Assembly (NCBI GenBank): GCA_044357345.1
Contig: JBIKPR010000005.1
Coordinates: forward strand, 2,933-66,932
Reading direction: 5' to 3'
Length of the DNA stretch: 64,000 bases
Origin: Bacteroidia bacterium
GTDB lineage: Bacteria; Bacteroidota; Bacteroidia; NS11-12g; UBA955
The translations under genes and the position numbers were made by a program. This document shows, piece by piece, positions 941 to 37,702 of this stretch (position 1 is the stretch's first letter; every line of letters begins with the position of its first letter). The notes under the pieces are model-generated. The model had not been told where the DNA came from. It saw nothing but the letters and a program-made list of their open reading frames with translations, and made no database searches.

Positions 941-2902
941 ATGCATAAATATAAAGTTACAATGACATCTATGAGGATTTTTATTTTTGCTTTTTTTGTT
1001 TTTTTTTCTCTGCAACTTTTTTCACAAGGTCCTGTTTTGTCTAATTTAAATAGAAATATTTATTTGAATAAACCAAATAGTCAAAACAGTTCAAAGAGAA
1101 GCATAACTGATACCATTCAACTTCCTTTTTTCGAAGATTTTACCAGCAGCACTGTTTATCCAAATATGAAATATTGGAGAGATAGTTTGGTTTATATTAA
1201 TAATCAATTTTCCGTTTCACCCCCTAGCTACGGAGTTGCGACCTTCGATAATTTAGATAAAAAGGGAAAACCATATCAATCTCTAAATGGTTTAACCCAC
1301 AACCACAGTGACTCTCTTACCTCTAATTTTATTAATTTAAAGAATTATAAAAACGGATTAAACACCATAAGCTATTCAGTTGCCGATTCTATCTATTTAA
1401 GTTTCTTTTACCAAACCCAAGGTATTGGTGATCCTTTGGATAAGTCAGATTCATTGGTCTTGAAATTTAAAGACCTCAATGGGTTTTGGAAAACTGTTTG
1501 GAAAACAACAGGTGGTTCAGTTAAACCTTTTAAACAGGTATTGGTAGGCGTTTTAAGTCCCAATTATTTGAACTCTAATTTTCAATTTAGATTTGTCAAT
1601 TATGGAAAAACGACCGGAAACATGAACCAATGGCATATCGATTATATCCGAATGAAAAGTTCTAGAAATAGATACGACACATTGGTAAATGATGTGGCAA
1701 TAAATGCGGAGCCTATAGGTCCATTGCAAATATACGAAAGTATGCCTTACGACCATTTTAAAGCAAACGCCCCATTCAATCAGTCTGCTTTTCACACAGT
1801 TAAATTAAGAAATAACAACAACACATCTGTTAACGTTCAATACAAATGTGAAGTGAGAAATGTTTACAATAAAATAATTGTCTCATACCCTTTGAGCTCA
1901 TCTGCAAGAAATGTCAATCGATTCAGCGATAGCAGCGAAAATTTCACTTCGTTTAGATTTGATACTTTGTCAGGAAAATCTCCTCTGTTGAAATTAAAAT
2001 ATACCATTGCGCCTTTGGCAAATGATTTTACGCCTGATAACTACAACAGCATAGGCAACAACAACGAATACACCAAAACAGTTAAATTCAACAATTATTT
2101 TGCCTACGATGATGGTTCTGCAGAAGGTGGTTATGGATTAGATTATGGTTCTTTACCTGCAGGGCCTGGATATGCTGCAATAAAATTCTCTTCCTTCAAA
2201 CCTGATACACTTAGAGGTATTTCAGTCTTTTTTAACCGCTCCATTGCCGATGTTCAATTCAAATCTTTTAATTTAATTGTTTGGAAAACAATCAGCGAAC
2301 CTCCCGCTAACAACACCAATTCAGACATCATTTTAAAGCGCGTAAGCATTCCTAGTACTGTTTATACCGATTCAATCAACGGATTTACAAACTTTATTTT
2401 TGATACCGCTGTCTTGTTGCCACAAGGTTCATTTTTTATAGGCTGGCAACAAAACACCAATTTTATTTTAAATGTTGGTTATGACAACAACTATAAATAT
2501 GCAAAATCTGGGGGAACAAATCCAAATTTATTCTACAACCTAAACGGTTATTGGGAAAAAGTTAGCACTAACATTACTGGCGCTGTAATGATGAGACCAC
2601 TTGTTGGACGTGAAATAAAAGTTAATAACCCCTCAAATATTCTTGGAGATATAAAAGCCCCTAATATTACTATTTACCCAAATCCATCGTCCAACAACGA
2701 TGTGGTTTTTGTGAAAGCCTCAAGCCAAATTCGATCCATTAAAATTTACGATTGCCAAGGTAAACTTCAACTTGAAGTGCAAGATGAAAACATTGAAAAA
2801 CTAAATATAAGCAATCTAAACAATGGTATTTATTTCTTTGAAATAATAGATGAATTTAACCAAACCAGTTTTCAAAAATGGATCAAACAATCTTATGAAT
2901 GA
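941..2902 (+). CDS. secreted protein with T9SS type A C-terminal sorting domain
   Basis: Signal peptide (IFIFAFFVFFSLQLFSQ). The C-terminal ~80 aa (ITIYPNPSSNNDVVFVK...IKIYDCQGKLQ...LNNGIYFFEI) fit the Por/T9SS CTD pattern. The start could also be an internal Met at residue 8 or 11. Confidence 0.7.
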   Translation: MHKYKVTMTSMRIFIFAFFVFFSLQLFSQGPVLSNLNRNIYLNKPNSQNSSKRSITDTIQLPFFEDFTSSTVYPNMKYWRDSLVYINNQFSVSPPSYGVATFDNLDKKGKPYQSLNGLTHNHSDSLTSNFINLKNYKNGLNTISYSVADSIYLSFFYQTQGIGDPLDKSDSLVLKFKDLNGFWKTVWKTTGGSVKPFKQVLVGVLSPNYLNSNFQFRFVNYGKTTGNMNQWHIDYIRMKSSRNRYDTLVNDVAINAEPIGPLQIYESMPYDHFKANAPFNQSAFHTVKLRNNNNTSVNVQYKCEVRNVYNKIIVSYPLSSSARNVNRFSDSSENFTSFRFDTLSGKSPLLKLKYTIAPLANDFTPDNYNSIGNNNEYTKTVKFNNYFAYDDGSAEGGYGLDYGSLPAGPGYAAIKFSSFKPDTLRGISVFFNRSIADVQFKSFNLIVWKTISEPPANNTNSDIILKRVSIPSTVYTDSINGFTNFIFDTAVLLPQGSFFIGWQQNTNFILNVGYDNNYKYAKSGGTNPNLFYNLNGYWEKVSTNITGAVMMRPLVGREIKVNNPSNILGDIKAPNITIYPNPSSNNDVVFVKASSQIRSIKIYDCQGKLQLEVQDENIEKLNISNLNNGIYFFEIIDEFNQTSFQKWIKQSYE

Positions 2903-3202: not shown

Positions 3203-5086
3203 TTGCCGAAAAAATTAAGCGCCATATTATTAGGTTTAATTTTTATTGTTTCATTTAGTCTTTGCCGCCAAACAAAGAATCTAAGTGAAGTTTCTCCTTA
3301 CCTTAACCACAACGATTCTGTTAAATATGTAGGAATTGAAACCTGCAAATCTTGTCATTTAGATAAGTATGAAACCTTTGTCAAAACGGGCATGGGCATG
3401 AGCTTCGACTCTGCATCTATACATAAATCATCTGCAAATTTCATCAATCCAAAGCCAGTTTACGATTCGTTTCTAAACCTCTATTACCTTCCGTTTTTGA
3501 AAAACAATGTATTCTATTTAAAGGAATATAGAATGGAAAATAAAGACACTGTTTATTCTAGAACTGAGAAAATAAATTATATTGTGGGTTCTGGACACCA
3601 CACCAACTCACACATGATTGAAGAAAATGGGTATGTTTTTCAAGCGCCTATTACCTTTTATACTCAAAAGGGGAAATGGGACTTGCCTCCTGGATTTGAA
3701 AATGGAAATAATACCCGCTTCAACCGTAAAATTGGTTTAGAATGCATGAGTTGTCACAATGCAATGCCTCAATTAGTTGAAGCTTCGGAAAACCAATACA
3801 ATGAGCTACCACATGGCATCAATTGTGAACGTTGCCATGGTCCTGGACAAATTCACGTTCAGGAAATGAAAAAAGGGAATGTTGTAGATGTCAACAAAAC
3901 GGTTGATTACACCATTGTTAATCCTGGGAAATTGTCTTGGCAAAGGCAAATTGATGTTTGTCAACGTTGCCATTTACAAGGCAATGCTGTTTTAAAACCA
4001 AATAAATCGTTTGCCAGTTTTAAACCAGGGATGGTCTTAAGTGAGACATTTGACCAATTTTCTCCCGAATACGAAGACGGTGAAGACTTTGTTATGGCCG
4101 CACATGCTGAGAGGTTTCAGAAAAGTAAATGCTTTATAGCTAGCAATAAAAATAAATTAAATATTGAAAATGTGAAATTATCGTTTACTTGTATTTCATG
4201 CCATAATCCCCATGTTTCTGTTAGAAAAACCAATACGCTTCAATTTAACAATACCTGCAATTCTTGCCACAATGAAAAAAAATGCACCGAAACTGTAGAG
4301 AATAGAAATAAACAAAATGACAATTGTGTATCATGCCATATGCCTATATCTGGAACCGCTGATATTCCCCATGTTTCTGTACACGATCATTATATCCGCA
4401 AGCCTAGCAAATTACCAGCAATTAAGCCAACTAAATTAAAGGGCCTAAGATGCATTACATCAAATTCGCCGGATATTAATACTGTGACCGAGGCTTATGT
4501 GTCTTATTTTGAAAAATTCGAATCCAATCCTTTTTATTTAAATAAAGCCAAAGAGTTAAGTAAAAAATTAGATACTAAGAATCAATCTCATGTGCAAACT
4601 CTAATACATCTTTATTATCTGTCTGAGGATTACAAGGCAATTTTAAATATTGCAAACAAATACTCTGCAGAGCTTGATGCATGGACCAATTATAGAATAG
4701 CTAAAGCATTTGAAAAATTAAATAATCTTAATAAGGCCGAATCTTTTTTAGCCAAAGCGGTAGAACAAAATAGTAAATCGCTAGACTTTATTTTACAATA
4801 TGCAGTGCTCGAAATCAAGCTAAATAAATGGAAACAGGCTGAATCTCTTTTGAATAACTATATAAAATTATACAGTAAATCTGCCGAATCATGGGCTTAC
4901 ATCGGTCTTGTTAAATTAAAGGAGAATAAACTTTCAGAAGCTAAAAGTAATTTTATTCGCTCTTTGAATTTAGATCCTGATCAAGCCATTGCTTTGCAAA
5001 ACCTGTATCAAATTTATTTGCTTTCAAATCCTCTTGAAGCCAAAAAAATCGCGAAAAGAATTGCAGCGTTGAAAGGCAAAAAATAG
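3203..5086 (+). CDS. multiheme (7x CXXCH) c-type cytochrome fused to C-terminal TPR repeats; probable lipoprotein
   Basis: Seven CXXCH motifs: CKSCH, CMSCH, CERCH(GPG), CQRCH, CISCH, CNSCH, CVSCH. The C-terminal ~200 aa are TPR-like helical repeats. The TTG start is supported by the signal/lipobox sequence LLGLIFIVSFSLC directly after it; the next in-frame ATG lies beyond the first heme motif. Confidence 0.75.
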   Translation: MPKKLSAILLGLIFIVSFSLCRQTKNLSEVSPYLNHNDSVKYVGIETCKSCHLDKYETFVKTGMGMSFDSASIHKSSANFINPKPVYDSFLNLYYLPFLKNNVFYLKEYRMENKDTVYSRTEKINYIVGSGHHTNSHMIEENGYVFQAPITFYTQKGKWDLPPGFENGNNTRFNRKIGLECMSCHNAMPQLVEASENQYNELPHGINCERCHGPGQIHVQEMKKGNVVDVNKTVDYTIVNPGKLSWQRQIDVCQRCHLQGNAVLKPNKSFASFKPGMVLSETFDQFSPEYEDGEDFVMAAHAERFQKSKCFIASNKNKLNIENVKLSFTCISCHNPHVSVRKTNTLQFNNTCNSCHNEKKCTETVENRNKQNDNCVSCHMPISGTADIPHVSVHDHYIRKPSKLPAIKPTKLKGLRCITSNSPDINTVTEAYVSYFEKFESNPFYLNKAKELSKKLDTKNQSHVQTLIHLYYLSEDYKAILNIANKYSAELDAWTNYRIAKAFEKLNNLNKAESFLAKAVEQNSKSLDFILQYAVLEIKLNKWKQAESLLNNYIKLYSKSAESWAYIGLVKLKENKLSEAKSNFIRSLNLDPDQAIALQNLYQIYLLSNPLEAKKIAKRIAALKGKK

Positions 5087-34981: not shown

Positions 34982-35605
34982 CTATTGTTTCAATTTCAAT
35001 TTGAACTTATTGACCATTGACCTAAATATCTCACTTTCATTTAGTGTTTCTTCATATTGTTCAGATGCTGTATAGGCTTTCCTTGTTGTATTTGCAGTCT
35101 CATCAATTGCAAACTGCAAGCTTATTTCAGGGTCATTGAAATACTTTTTCAAAAACGCTTGCCAATCTATTTTAACTTCACCTATGAATTCTTCCTGTTG
35201 AACTGTCATTGTAACAACAACTTGCTTTTCTTTAATTGCTGGAATTAAAAGTTTTATTAATGACACAATGGAAACCTTTTGTTTTGCTGCAAAAAGTGCA
35301 AATGCTTTTACAGTATTTTCTTGGTTTAACTCAGGAGCAATCACAAGATCTTCAGAAATTTCTTCAACAAGCTTTTCAATTTGAGCCTCAATTTCTGTAA
35401 CTGGAATGTCTTCTTCTTTTTCAAGTATCTCAGCACTGCTGATCTGAATCGGAATGCCAGTGTTTTTCTTTGGGATTTTTGGAAAGGATAGAGCTTTGTC
35501 CGCAAGTTCCGGCGGTTTAATTGCATGAACTGGAAGCACCAATTCCTTCTTTTGAACAAGACTTTCTTTCCTGCTTAAGTACTCATCACTTTTTTTTTTA
35601 TTTCT
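34982..35605 (-). CDS. dnaX: DNA polymerase III tau C-terminal region, in the -1 frame relative to dnaX and with no convincing independent start
   Basis: By hand translation, the frame is open from 35605 (just after TGA at 35608-35606) through the A10 tract and past the dnaX stop into the track ORF 35542-34982 (...KKKSDEYLSRKESLVQKKELVLPVHAIKPPEL...). The C-terminal end (RKAYTASEQYEETLNESEIFRSMVNKFKLKLK) resembles the C-terminus of full-length Bacteroidota DnaX as I recall it. The track ORF begins with TTG only. Confidence 0.6.
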   Translation of the reverse strand, partial: RNKKKSDEYLSRKESLVQKKELVLPVHAIKPPELADKALSFPKIPKKNTGIPIQISSAEILEKEEDIPVTEIEAQIEKLVEEISEDLVIAPELNQENTVKAFALFAAKQKVSIVSLIKLLIPAIKEKQVVVTMTVQQEEFIGEVKIDWQAFLKKYFNDPEISLQFAIDETANTTRKAYTASEQYEETLNESEIFRSMVNKFKLKLKQ

Positions 35606-36684
35606 TCAAGAGTGATTGCATTATTAATTTGACTCCGAATATGGCAAAGCTTCATCAAGGCCAATTCTATGTGCAATCTTGGGTTCTTGCTGTTCTTATA
35701 TTCAACATCAAACTGATTGTTAATATTCAAGCCATTTAACAAGAAACTTAAATCCGTTAGTTTACTTTGGGTTTCGTATTTTGATTTGTGCGATTCTCCA
35801 ACATCCAATAGGTGGGTGGTGGCTTTGTCTTTGCAAACCATTAAATTCCTAAAATGTTCGCTAAGTCCATTTAAGAACAATTGTCCCTCAAAACCCTTGT
35901 TCAATATTTCGTCATAGTAATTCAAAACCTCAGATATACTTTGTTCTAAGATTGATGTGGTTATCTTAAAGTAATAGTCTCTGTCTAGAATGTTTAAATT
36001 CTCAACGGCCTTCTCGTAATTGATATCACCATTGCAGTAACTTACCATTTGATCGAAGAGAGATAAACAATCCCTAAGTCCACCATCGGCTTTTTCAGCA
36101 ATCAAGTGCAAAGATTCATTGTCTACCTTAACATTTTCCTTCAAGGCAATCTTTTTCAAATGTTCAACCATATCCTTTATTTGAATACGTTTGAAATTGA
36201 ATATTTGACATCTAGATAAAATCGTCGGCAATATTTTGTGCTTCTCTGTTGTTGCTAAAATGAAAATAGCATATTTCGGAGGCTCTTCCAATGTTTTTAA
36301 AAATGCATTAAAAGCTGCCTGAGAGAGCATGTGAACCTCATCTATGATATAGACTTTGTAATTTCCAACTTGAGGTGGTATTCTAACTTGTTCATTTAAA
36401 TTTCGAATGTCATCAACTGAGTTGTTACTCGCTGCGTCCATTTCGAAAATATTAAAAGCATAATCTTGGTCTGGATTATCATTTTCCTTTTGGTTAATTA
36501 CTTTTGCTAAAATCCTAGCACAAGTTGTTTTACCAACACCTCTTGGTCCTGTAAATAAAAAAGATTGAGCCAAATGGTTGTTGTTTATTTCATTCAACAG
36601 GGTTTCTGTAATATGTGACTGCCCAACCACCTCGTCAAAAACGGAAGGTCTGTATTTACGGGCAGAAACAATGAAATTTTCCAA
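35575..36684 (-). CDS. dnaX: DNA polymerase III subunit gamma/tau, frame-0 product (domains I-III, gamma-like, 369 aa)
   Basis: Walker A GPRGVGKTT, Walker B IIDEVHML, sensor SRCQ, and the typical N-terminus (ARKYRPSVFDEVVGQ). Confidence 0.9.
   Translation of the reverse strand: MENFIVSARKYRPSVFDEVVGQSHITETLLNEINNNHLAQSFLFTGPRGVGKTTCARILAKVINQKENDNPDQDYAFNIFEMDAASNNSVDDIRNLNEQVRIPPQVGNYKVYIIDEVHMLSQAAFNAFLKTLEEPPKYAIFILATTEKHKILPTILSRCQIFNFKRIQIKDMVEHLKKIALKENVKVDNESLHLIAEKADGGLRDCLSLFDQMVSYCNGDINYEKAVENLNILDRDYYFKITTSILEQSISEVLNYYDEILNKGFEGQLFLNGLSEHFRNLMVCKDKATTHLLDVGESHKSKYETQSKLTDLSFLLNGLNINNQFDVEYKNSKNPRLHIELALMKLCHIRSQINNAITLEEIKKKVMST
35590..35599 (-). other. A10 homopolymer at the dnaX frame junction (candidate ribosomal or transcriptional slippage site, or an indel error)
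   Basis: T10 on the + strand. In dnaX frame 0 it reads AUA AAA AAA AAA GUG, an X XXY YYZ-compatible run. The frame-0 stop follows 7 codons later. Confidence 0.6.
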
Positions 36685-36971
36685 TTTGTTTTTTAATTTA
36701 CTGATCGCAAAAGTAATTTATTTTTTTTCCCAAAAAACAGATGTTGATAATTTAATCAAAGCTTTAAACCGTATCGTTTTAGCTTTTTTAAAATATGAGA
36801 AAAACACAAATTTTATCCATGTTTTCCAATTTTAATGGTCAAATAACTAGATATGTTTTTCCGTAAACTCAATTATAAATATACAATAAAACTAATTATA
36901 ACAATAAAATATTAGGTATAAGCCGTGCTTAAACTTCTTTGATTTTGTTTTGATTTTTAAAATATTTGTAT

Positions 36972-36979
36972 TACTTTTG
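36972..36979 (+). promoter_or_regulatory. candidate Bacteroidota -7 promoter box (TACTTTTG = TAnnTTTG) for rpsP
   Basis: Matches the TAnnTTTG consensus 43 nt upstream of the rpsP ATG. No experimental support. Confidence 0.3.
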
Positions 36980-36984
36980 CACCC

Positions 36985-37011
36985 CGCAAGAACAGGAGAA
37001 CTTGCGTTTTT
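36985..37011 (+). promoter_or_regulatory. leader hairpin CGCAAG-N10-CTTGCG followed by TTTTT, 11 nt upstream of the rpsP start
   Basis: Read directly: cgcaag aacaggagaa cttgcg ttttt. It has the shape of an intrinsic terminator but lies between the candidate promoter and the start codon. Confidence 0.4.
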
Positions 37012-37021
37012 ATATAATTTT

Positions 37022-37702
37022 ATGGCAACTAAATTAAGATTACAGCGTCATGGACGCAAAAAACAAGCCTACTACTACATTGTGGCGGCAGATTCACGTG
37101 CTCCGAGAGATGGTAGATTTATTGAAAGGATTGGTGATTACAACCCTAATTCCAACCCAGCAACAATCAACTTAGATCTGAAGAAAGCAGTGAAATGGTT
37201 AGACACAGGCGCTGTCCCTACGGACACCGTTCGTGCCATTCTATCTTACAAAGGTGCAATGATGTTGCACCACTTACATGGAGGTGTCAACAAAGGCTCC
37301 TTTACACTAGAAGAAGCAGATGCTAAATTTGCTAAATGGACTGAAGAAAAAGATGCTAAAGTTCAAAGCAAACGCGATGGCCTAGCTAGCGCTAAAGCTC
37401 AAACAGCCTCTGAAAAGTTAAAAGCTGAAGCTAAAATTAAAGAAGCAAGAGCGATTGCTATCGCTGCGAAAAACGCAGTTGTAGAAGAAGTTCCTGCTGA
37501 GGAAATTGCTGCTGAAGAAACTGCAGTGGTTGAAGCGGCTGTTGAAACTGCAGTTGTTGAAGCTGCTGTTGAAACTACAGTAATTGAAGCGGCTGTTGAA
37601 ACTGCAGTTGTTGAAGCTGCTGTTGAAACACCAACAGTTGAGTCAACTGAAGAAACAACTTCAGAAGCTCCAGAAGCTGCTGCTGAAAATACTGAAGCTT
37701 AA
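37022..37702 (+). CDS. rpsP: 30S ribosomal protein S16 with long Ala/Glu/Val-rich repetitive C-terminal extension
   Basis: [42 protein letters not shown] is a canonical bS16 N-terminus. I moved the start to ATG 37022, since the track start at 36950 adds a non-conserved leader. Confidence 0.9.
37515..37639 (+). repeat. in-frame 27-nt tandem repeat (about 4.6 units; 54-nt higher-order unit) encoding (E-A-A-V-E-T-A-V-V)n in the S16 tail
   Basis: Units are 37532-37558, 37559-37585, 37586-37612 and 37613-37639. Units 1 and 3 are identical (gaagcggctgttgaaactgcagttgtt), and units 2 and 4 share gaagctgctgttgaaac. Confidence 0.85.

Follow-up and report, generated by a model that had tools for sequence, protein, structure and literature searches.

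Dual products of the dnaX gene and the locus of the window

The dnaX gene gives two products, tau and gamma, in several bacteria. In Escherichia coli, −1 frameshifting takes place at the sequence A_AAA_AAG at the boundary of domains III and IV (PMC5009743). In Thermus thermophilus, transcriptional slippage on a run of nine A residues (A9) has been experimentally established, and about half of the product is the short form, according to the summary of Larsen et al. (2000) given in PMC1088944. A reversed dnaX consisting of two open reading frames (ORFs) was reported in Bacteroidetes/Chlorobi by Antonov et al. (2013; NAR 41:6514, PMC3711429; GeneTack cluster COF_239165634). They listed 17 genes in 12 genera, nine with A10, and proposed programmed transcriptional realignment; their Figure S3 includes Flavobacterium johnsoniae, F. 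psychrophilum, Cytophaga hutchinsonii, Capnocytophaga ochracea, Coraliomargarita, and five Chlorobi. The reversed layout was restated by Atkins et al. in 2016 (PMC5009743) and by Sharma et al. in 2014 (PMC4066793). In this study, we analyzed the dnaX gene in a 64-kb stretch of DNA (hereafter the window; 34.5% guanine plus cytosine (GC)) from an uncultured freshwater Bacteroidia lineage. This gene is split at an A10 tract, with the genomic frame specifying a gamma-like protein, and the comparisons described below indicate that tau is very probably obtained by programmed recoding of some form at the tract.

The zero-frame dnaX ORF lies on the minus strand (35575..36684), begins with TTG, and encodes a gamma-like protein of 369 aa that comprises the AAA+ module, the lid and domain III and ends in ...CHIRSQINNAITLEEIKKKVMST, i.e., ...LEEIKKKVMST. 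The putative recoding site is the slippery A10 tract (T10 on the plus strand; 35590..35599, minus), read as AUA AAA AAA AAA GUG and flanked as ..GAAGAAAT-A10-GTGATGAG.. in codon phase 2. The gamma-like product is terminated by a TAA (35575..35577, minus) after four sense codons (V M S T) past the tract. An earlier note on this DNA, made from the sequence alone, had placed the stop seven codons after the tract; this count includes the three Lys codons within the tract. In the three-frame translation, a TGA (35606..35608, minus) closes the −1 frame just 5' of the tract, and this frame then stays open from 35605 to 34982, through the tract and across the zero-frame TAA. Because of this TGA, the −1 frame can be entered only between 35605 and the zero-frame stop. 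The −1-frame region provides 202 open codons from the tract (34982..35590, minus) and contains the ORF of 186 aa (35542..34982) that a gene caller would list separately. The third frame (+2 or −1 nt) is stopped by a TGA (35586..35588, minus), and mRNAs with two additional A residues or one fewer would end in ...KKK(K)*, a second gamma-like variant. The addition of one A (A11) results in a continuous protein of 567 aa and the removal of two (A8) in a protein of 566 aa, close to the 566 aa estimated before. The Pfam match to domain III covers residues 230–354 and the tract corresponds to codons 362–365, which confirms its position at the domain III/IV boundary. On re-reading, the split at A10 and the coordinates of the tract, the ORFs and the −1-frame TGA were all reproduced.

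Compared with the set of Antonov et al., the window likewise has two adjacent ORFs joined at A10, the second in the −1 frame, with the zero-frame stop directly after the tract, and in both the arrangement is known from sequence alone. The lineage of the window is absent from that set, however, the flanks of the tract differ, and the codon phase is 2 instead of the phase 1 of the Flavobacterium type. The earlier note was not aware of any description of the inverted arrangement, and on this point it has to be corrected, as the layout was published in the three papers cited above.

The T. thermophilus dnaX, as far as it is described in PMC1088944, resembles the window gene in having an A run at the same domain boundary, nearby stops in the non-tau frames, and one gene that gives, in the window presumably, tau and gamma. 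The two differ in that the templated frame of T. thermophilus encodes tau and the slipped mRNAs encode gamma from A9, whereas in the window the templated frame encodes gamma and slipped mRNAs (+1 or −2 nt) would encode tau from A10. The E. coli dnaX shares the gene, the domain III/IV boundary, a slippery sequence of lysine codons, and, as proposed for the window, the two products. Its A_AAA_AAG site is, on the other hand, accompanied by an upstream Shine–Dalgarno (SD)-like element and a downstream hairpin; in the window the polarity is reversed, neither stimulator was found, and the run exceeds a heptamer in length and is retained whatever the codon phase. Production of the longer product by slippage has been reported for Shigella mxiE (on a U run), for Citrobacter rodentium tssM, and for the poly(A) frameshift rescue in Blochmannia and Buchnera, including Blochmannia dnaX (PMC1088944, PMC4256274, PMC3017870). 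As in the window, the genomic frame of these genes yields a truncated product, and, as proposed here, the complete functional protein is obtained only when a homopolymer gains a nucleotide that is absent from the template, but these cases are lineage-specific or degenerative, whereas the site in the window is the gamma/tau boundary and is conserved across the phylum. The Blochmannia dnaX frameshift was considered as the closest precedent and was rejected, as it is situated past the gamma site, within the region found only in tau.

Reproducibility and conservation of the split gene

The A10 tract was found without any gap in the Logan contigs of five independent lake-water metagenome runs (X1, X3, X4, X5 and X8), and the contigs spanning the tract include two strains distinguished by single nucleotide polymorphisms (SNPs), both with A10. 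When the fused protein was used as the query of a protein search, the best 51 clusters (68–98% identity) covered only the N-terminal 64% of the query and were all 351–400 aa in length. These clusters were drawn from ENA, JGI, NCBI and Logan, and every sequence that was read ends in ...L[ED]E[IL]KKK followed by three to five residues. In the same search, single-ORF proteins (562–586 aa, 100% query coverage) were confined to matches of about 50% identity. In runs X2 and X5, some contigs stop at or near the edges of the tract (35549, 35600, 35601), so that the homopolymer interrupts the assembly graph, which could be due to low depth or to minority length variants in the population. One protein (P0049, 364 aa, from an ENA contig of 1832 nt) has a non-Bacteroidota-like DnaX N-terminus over its first ~100 residues and is typical of the window's clade in the remainder, and its contig is probably chimeric.

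Seven relatives, for which the DNA was examined (L081–L087, 68–90% identity), all carry exactly A10 in the same codon phase (2) as the window. In all seven, the zero-frame stop is located 4–5 codons past the tract, the +1 nt frame is open for 184–210 codons (202 in the window), and the +2 nt frame, as in the window, is closed after 1–2 codons. The comparison of tract length and frames in close relatives that had been proposed for this locus thus returned the layout of the window in every case. Synonymous sites among the window and these relatives are saturated, with the synonymous substitution rate (dS) above 2 or undefined; the ten identical bases have therefore been retained through deep divergence. 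On this comparative evidence, the split dnaX layout is conserved among the homologues and is not a pseudogene or an error.

The identity of the two coding parts was examined separately. The zero-frame ORF matches TIGR02397 dnaX_nterm (NCBIfam) with 389.5 bits against a cutoff of 250 and contains the Pfam matches DNA_pol3_delta2, DNAX_ATPase_lid and DNA_pol3_gamma3, as expected of a dnaX N-terminal part. The fused protein aligned end to end (residues 9–552) with the gamma/tau equivalog NF004046 at 414 bits (cutoff 400). In hhalign, the profile of eight −1-frame translations matched six single-ORF tau C-termini up to the extreme C-terminus (98.8% probability, E 4e-17), and in BLASTP the last ~100 residues of the −1-frame product matched the C-terminal end of the single-ORF DnaX P0052 (E 2e-6). 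These alignments bear out the resemblance of the end of the 186-aa ORF to the Bacteroidota DnaX C-terminus that had been noticed before, and they indicate that the C-terminal domain of the −1 frame is homologous to the tau C-terminus of single-ORF Bacteroidota DnaX. The C-terminal part alone gave no meaningful match in Pfam or NCBIfam, the Pfam library having been used without PF28557.

The family PF28557 (DUF8439) is annotated on the orphan downstream ORFs of three other loci (L084:3694-4188, L085:3679-4152, and L090:2850-3266) and also on the C-terminus of the full-length Flavobacterium DnaX proteins P0124 and P0157. DUF8439 thus appears to be the tau C-terminal domain of Bacteroidota.

Right after the tract, the −1-frame peptide is SDEY[LI] following KKK in six of the eight sequences, and the motif LPVHAIK..LAD..F.LPK.P is conserved in the −1 frame at positions that precede or surround the earliest codons at which translation could start. 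The downstream start codons themselves are not conserved, and the downstream genes called in the relatives range from 88 to 186 aa. These conserved peptides indicate that constraint on the protein acts in the −1 frame already at the first codon past the tract, upstream of any usable start codon. A terminator scan of the locus found no terminator-like site between the two ORFs, and sigma-70 promoter-like matches at the locus were fewer than in shuffled sequence, with a consensus that is unsuited to Bacteroidota. The locus was found in a single metatranscriptome (run X25), of which one contig (35525-35733) includes the tract, as A10, together with the stop of gamma and the nominal start of the downstream ORF, at a depth of 4 and with DNA carry-over being possible.

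The tract site in Bacteroidota

The site was surveyed in species-representative genomes, in which 80 loci of Bacteroidota species with 53–67% identity were listed and classified by a script. The window's own clade is outside these 80 loci, the best match listed being 67% identical. An A run of at least 7 residues is present at the domain III/IV boundary in 76 of the 80 listed species (e.g., L001:4089-4098 and L025:4061-4070). The tract is A10 in 61 loci, A9 in eight, A11 in three, A12 in two, and A13 and A7 in one each, and the four loci that are tractless have a single long ORF. Tau is encoded in frame 0 with a tract in 52 loci; it needs +1 nt, as in the window, in 20 (including L067, on a truncated contig) and +2 or −1 nt in four (L007, L020, L058 and L073). 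The reversed layout, with the short product in the genomic frame, is therefore found in 24 of the 80 listed species. The codon phase also varies, as the tract begins at codon position 1, 2 or 3 (phases 0, 1 and 2) depending on the lineage. A or T runs of at least 9 residues occur 76 times at the tract site, compared with 25 times in all other sequence (~0.5 Mb) of the listed loci. This wide sample suggests that the tract site is close to universal in Bacteroidota, in either polarity.

The reversed genes among the listed loci belong to Flavobacteriales, Cytophagales, Bacteroidales and unclassified Bacteroidia, and they are present in isolates such as Flavobacterium psychrotolerans, F. denitrificans, F. 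quisquiliarum, Chryseobacterium ginsenosidimutans and C. lathyri. Of the 52 genes with tau in frame 0, 98% have a stop within 4 codons in the +1 nt frame (control positions, 36%), and 88.5% have stops within 7 codons in both alternative frames (control positions, 20%). By this analysis, the early closure of both other frames is a Thermus-type signature for making gamma. The closest single-ORF DnaX of Bacteroidota type among the matches listed, with 67% identity and an A10 tract, comes from a contig titled 'uncultured Rhizobium sp.' (L001, CAZYBT010000031.1); this metagenome-assembled genome (MAG) is probably mislabelled or contaminated.

Within Flavobacterium, proteins that are more than 90% identical over the N-terminus occur as forms of 361 aa and of 570–606 aa. 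The single-ORF genes carry A8 (L089:1661-1668) or A11 (L088:1661-1671), the split genes carry A10 (L024, L025 at 4061-4070, L028, L035, and L090 at 2561-2570), and an A9 allele was found at L020:1514-1522. The flanks are near-identical between the A8, A9, A10 and A11 alleles, and the length of the tract toggles dnaX between one ORF and two. These length differences possibly represent a real polymorphism caused by replication slippage, or a homopolymer error in single contigs such as L088. One such Flavobacterium DnaX (P0129) bears the NCBI label 'LOW QUALITY PROTEIN'. Compared with the report of 2013, the prevalence of A10 in either polarity, the share of reversed genes among the listed loci, and the Flavobacterium tract alleles are new here; they extend that finding and leave it unchanged.

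Probable recoding at the tract and its meaning

Taken as a whole, our results show a conserved dnaX of reversed polarity, in which direct decoding would give gamma and a −1 shift at A10, probably brought about by transcriptional slippage, would give tau. The protein clusters, the relatives and the homology of the −1 frame support the earlier proposal that the genomic frame is gamma-like and that either a −1 shift or an additional A is required for tau. The genomic frame would be translated into the 369-aa clamp-loader subunit with domains I–III, and full-length tau of about 567 aa would arise whenever, in a part of the expression events, reading shifts to the −1 frame at the tract. RNA polymerase slipping on the A10/T10 template would produce a mixture of mRNAs with A9, A10, A11, A12 and so on. 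Those with A11, A8 or A14 would bring the downstream 202 codons into frame and give tau, those with A10 would give gamma (...KKKVMST), and those with A9 or A12 would give the second short form. A single gene would in this way supply both DnaX forms to the clamp loader. The fused tau would carry the junction peptides ...EEIKKKSDEYLSR and ...EEIKKKKSDEYLSR, in which the number of lysines would reflect the length of the run in the mRNA. We infer the shift at the level of transcription, its efficiency, and the existence of the fused protein.

Slippage at transcription is favored because both shift directions occur, the codon phase is irrelevant, and no conserved hairpin flanks the tract. A template run of about nine or more A or T residues, as at the slippage site of T. 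thermophilus, is present in the window as A10. Among the listed loci, the conserved feature is a run of nucleotides of fixed length in all codon phases and not a codon-phased heptamer; together with the two shift directions among homologues (20 loci with +1 nt and four with +2 or −1 nt), this phase independence corresponds to the comparative signature of slippage. No conserved or stable fold was found in the 60 nt upstream or the 70 nt downstream of the tract in eight sequences; the structures differ between relatives, and the fold z-scores around the tract are mostly within about ±1 to 2. Inspection of the sequence upstream of the window tract revealed no SD-like (GGAG-like) element.

Several observations weigh against transcriptional slippage as the explanation, and some of them would be accommodated by a shift at translation, in which the mRNA stays A10 and the tau frame is reached by −1 frameshifting on A_AAA_AAA or by ribosome sliding on the three AAA lysine codons. 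A heptamer of the form X_XXY_YYZ is present in frame inside the A10 at the phase of the window (AUA AAA AAA AAA G), and the E. coli gene also shifts at this domain boundary. Ribosomes have been described to slide along poly(A) lysine runs. The few RNA contigs on hand show A10, both that of run X25 and the soil metatranscriptome contigs over the F. denitrificans locus, although assembled contigs drop minority length variants. Given the in-frame heptamer, −1 frameshifting by ribosomes or their sliding over successive AAA codons could play a part or even be the dominant process. In the literature searched, no experimental test of reversed dnaX in any Bacteroidota was found. The ratio of nonsynonymous to synonymous substitution rates (dN/dS) of the −1-frame part, ~0.13–0.3 where computable, is also a rough value, as dS is saturated or undefined among all available relatives. 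A purely translational shift is nevertheless unlikely in our judgment. The E. coli-type stimulators, a conserved downstream stem-loop and an upstream SD-like element, are both missing here, and in four of the 24 reversed lineages among the listed loci tau requires a shift the other way (+2 or −1 nt), one that is beyond the reach of −1 frameshifting. Although a heptamer would be enough, ten A residues are kept in every codon phase. At the homologous A9 site of Thermus, the mechanism is transcriptional slippage, in the account given in PMC1088944.

Another explanation is a true fission of the gene, in which a gamma-like DnaX and a separate C-terminal polypeptide, started from the TTG at 35542 or later, would act in trans, or in which the C-terminal part would be a decaying remnant. 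A separate downstream ORF is called in every relative, and some of these ORFs are annotated only as DUF8439; yet all relatives have a −1 frame that is open right from the tract, in a genome of 34% GC, and SDEY[LI] is conserved immediately past the tract, whereas the first available start codon is not conserved and the called products vary from 88 to 186 aa. Fission would also leave the strict retention of A10 and the stops just after it in two other frames unexplained, and the C-terminal domain is under purifying selection, so that we consider this explanation very improbable. A still smaller chance, close to negligible, is given to a homopolymer miscall or an assembly error, which the earlier note had offered as its mundane alternative and in which the true tract would be A11 or A8 and dnaX one ordinary ORF. 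Homopolymers are error-prone, the X2 and X5 contigs break at the tract edges, and close relatives among Flavobacterium carry A8 (L089), A9 (L020) and A11 (L088) alleles. The miscall was rejected in view of the gap-free A10 in five independent runs with two SNP-distinct strains, the common end point of some 50 protein clusters that are independent of one another and were drawn from four data sources, and the exact A10 with an identical frame layout in the DNA of all seven diverged relatives. Moreover, no other gene of the window is broken at a homopolymer, and the reversed layout is also present in finished isolate genomes.

With recoding at the tract, tau, an essential replisome subunit, appears to depend on non-standard decoding in these bacteria. 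It is, in our estimation, an evenly balanced question whether A10 acts as a nearly phylum-wide 'frame randomiser' in Bacteroidota dnaX with an evolutionarily labile genomic polarity. If slippage puts a large share of the transcripts in each frame whatever the genomic frame is, flips of polarity would be nearly neutral, and the fidelity of transcription would determine the tau:gamma ratio and hence how much of an essential replisome subunit is available. This view would reach past the 17 genes of 2013 and would extend that work without a new principle. Gene callers and MAG pipelines report such loci as a truncated 'gamma/tau' with an orphan hypothetical protein of the DUF8439 type, or flag a frameshift or a 'LOW QUALITY PROTEIN'. 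The locus would be better annotated as one recoded gene than counted as an assembly error or a pseudogene. Cultivable Flavobacterium would be a good system for studying how the slippage rate sets the composition of the clamp loader.

Inspection of homopolymers and ORFs found no second long ORF broken at a homopolymer in the window, and the A10 tract is its sole homopolymer of at least 10 bases, the next longest being two T9 runs. A T7-G-T9 stretch (989-1007, plus strand), which belongs to the second-longest homopolymer class of the window, lies inside an intact ORF (941..2902) and encodes the signal-peptide-like FIFAFFVFFSL. The gene of ribosomal protein S16 (ORF 36950..37702) adjoins dnaX and has a long C-terminal extension rich in Ala, Val, Glu and Thr, in whose coding sequence a 27-nt unit is repeated in tandem about four times (37508-37656, plus strand).

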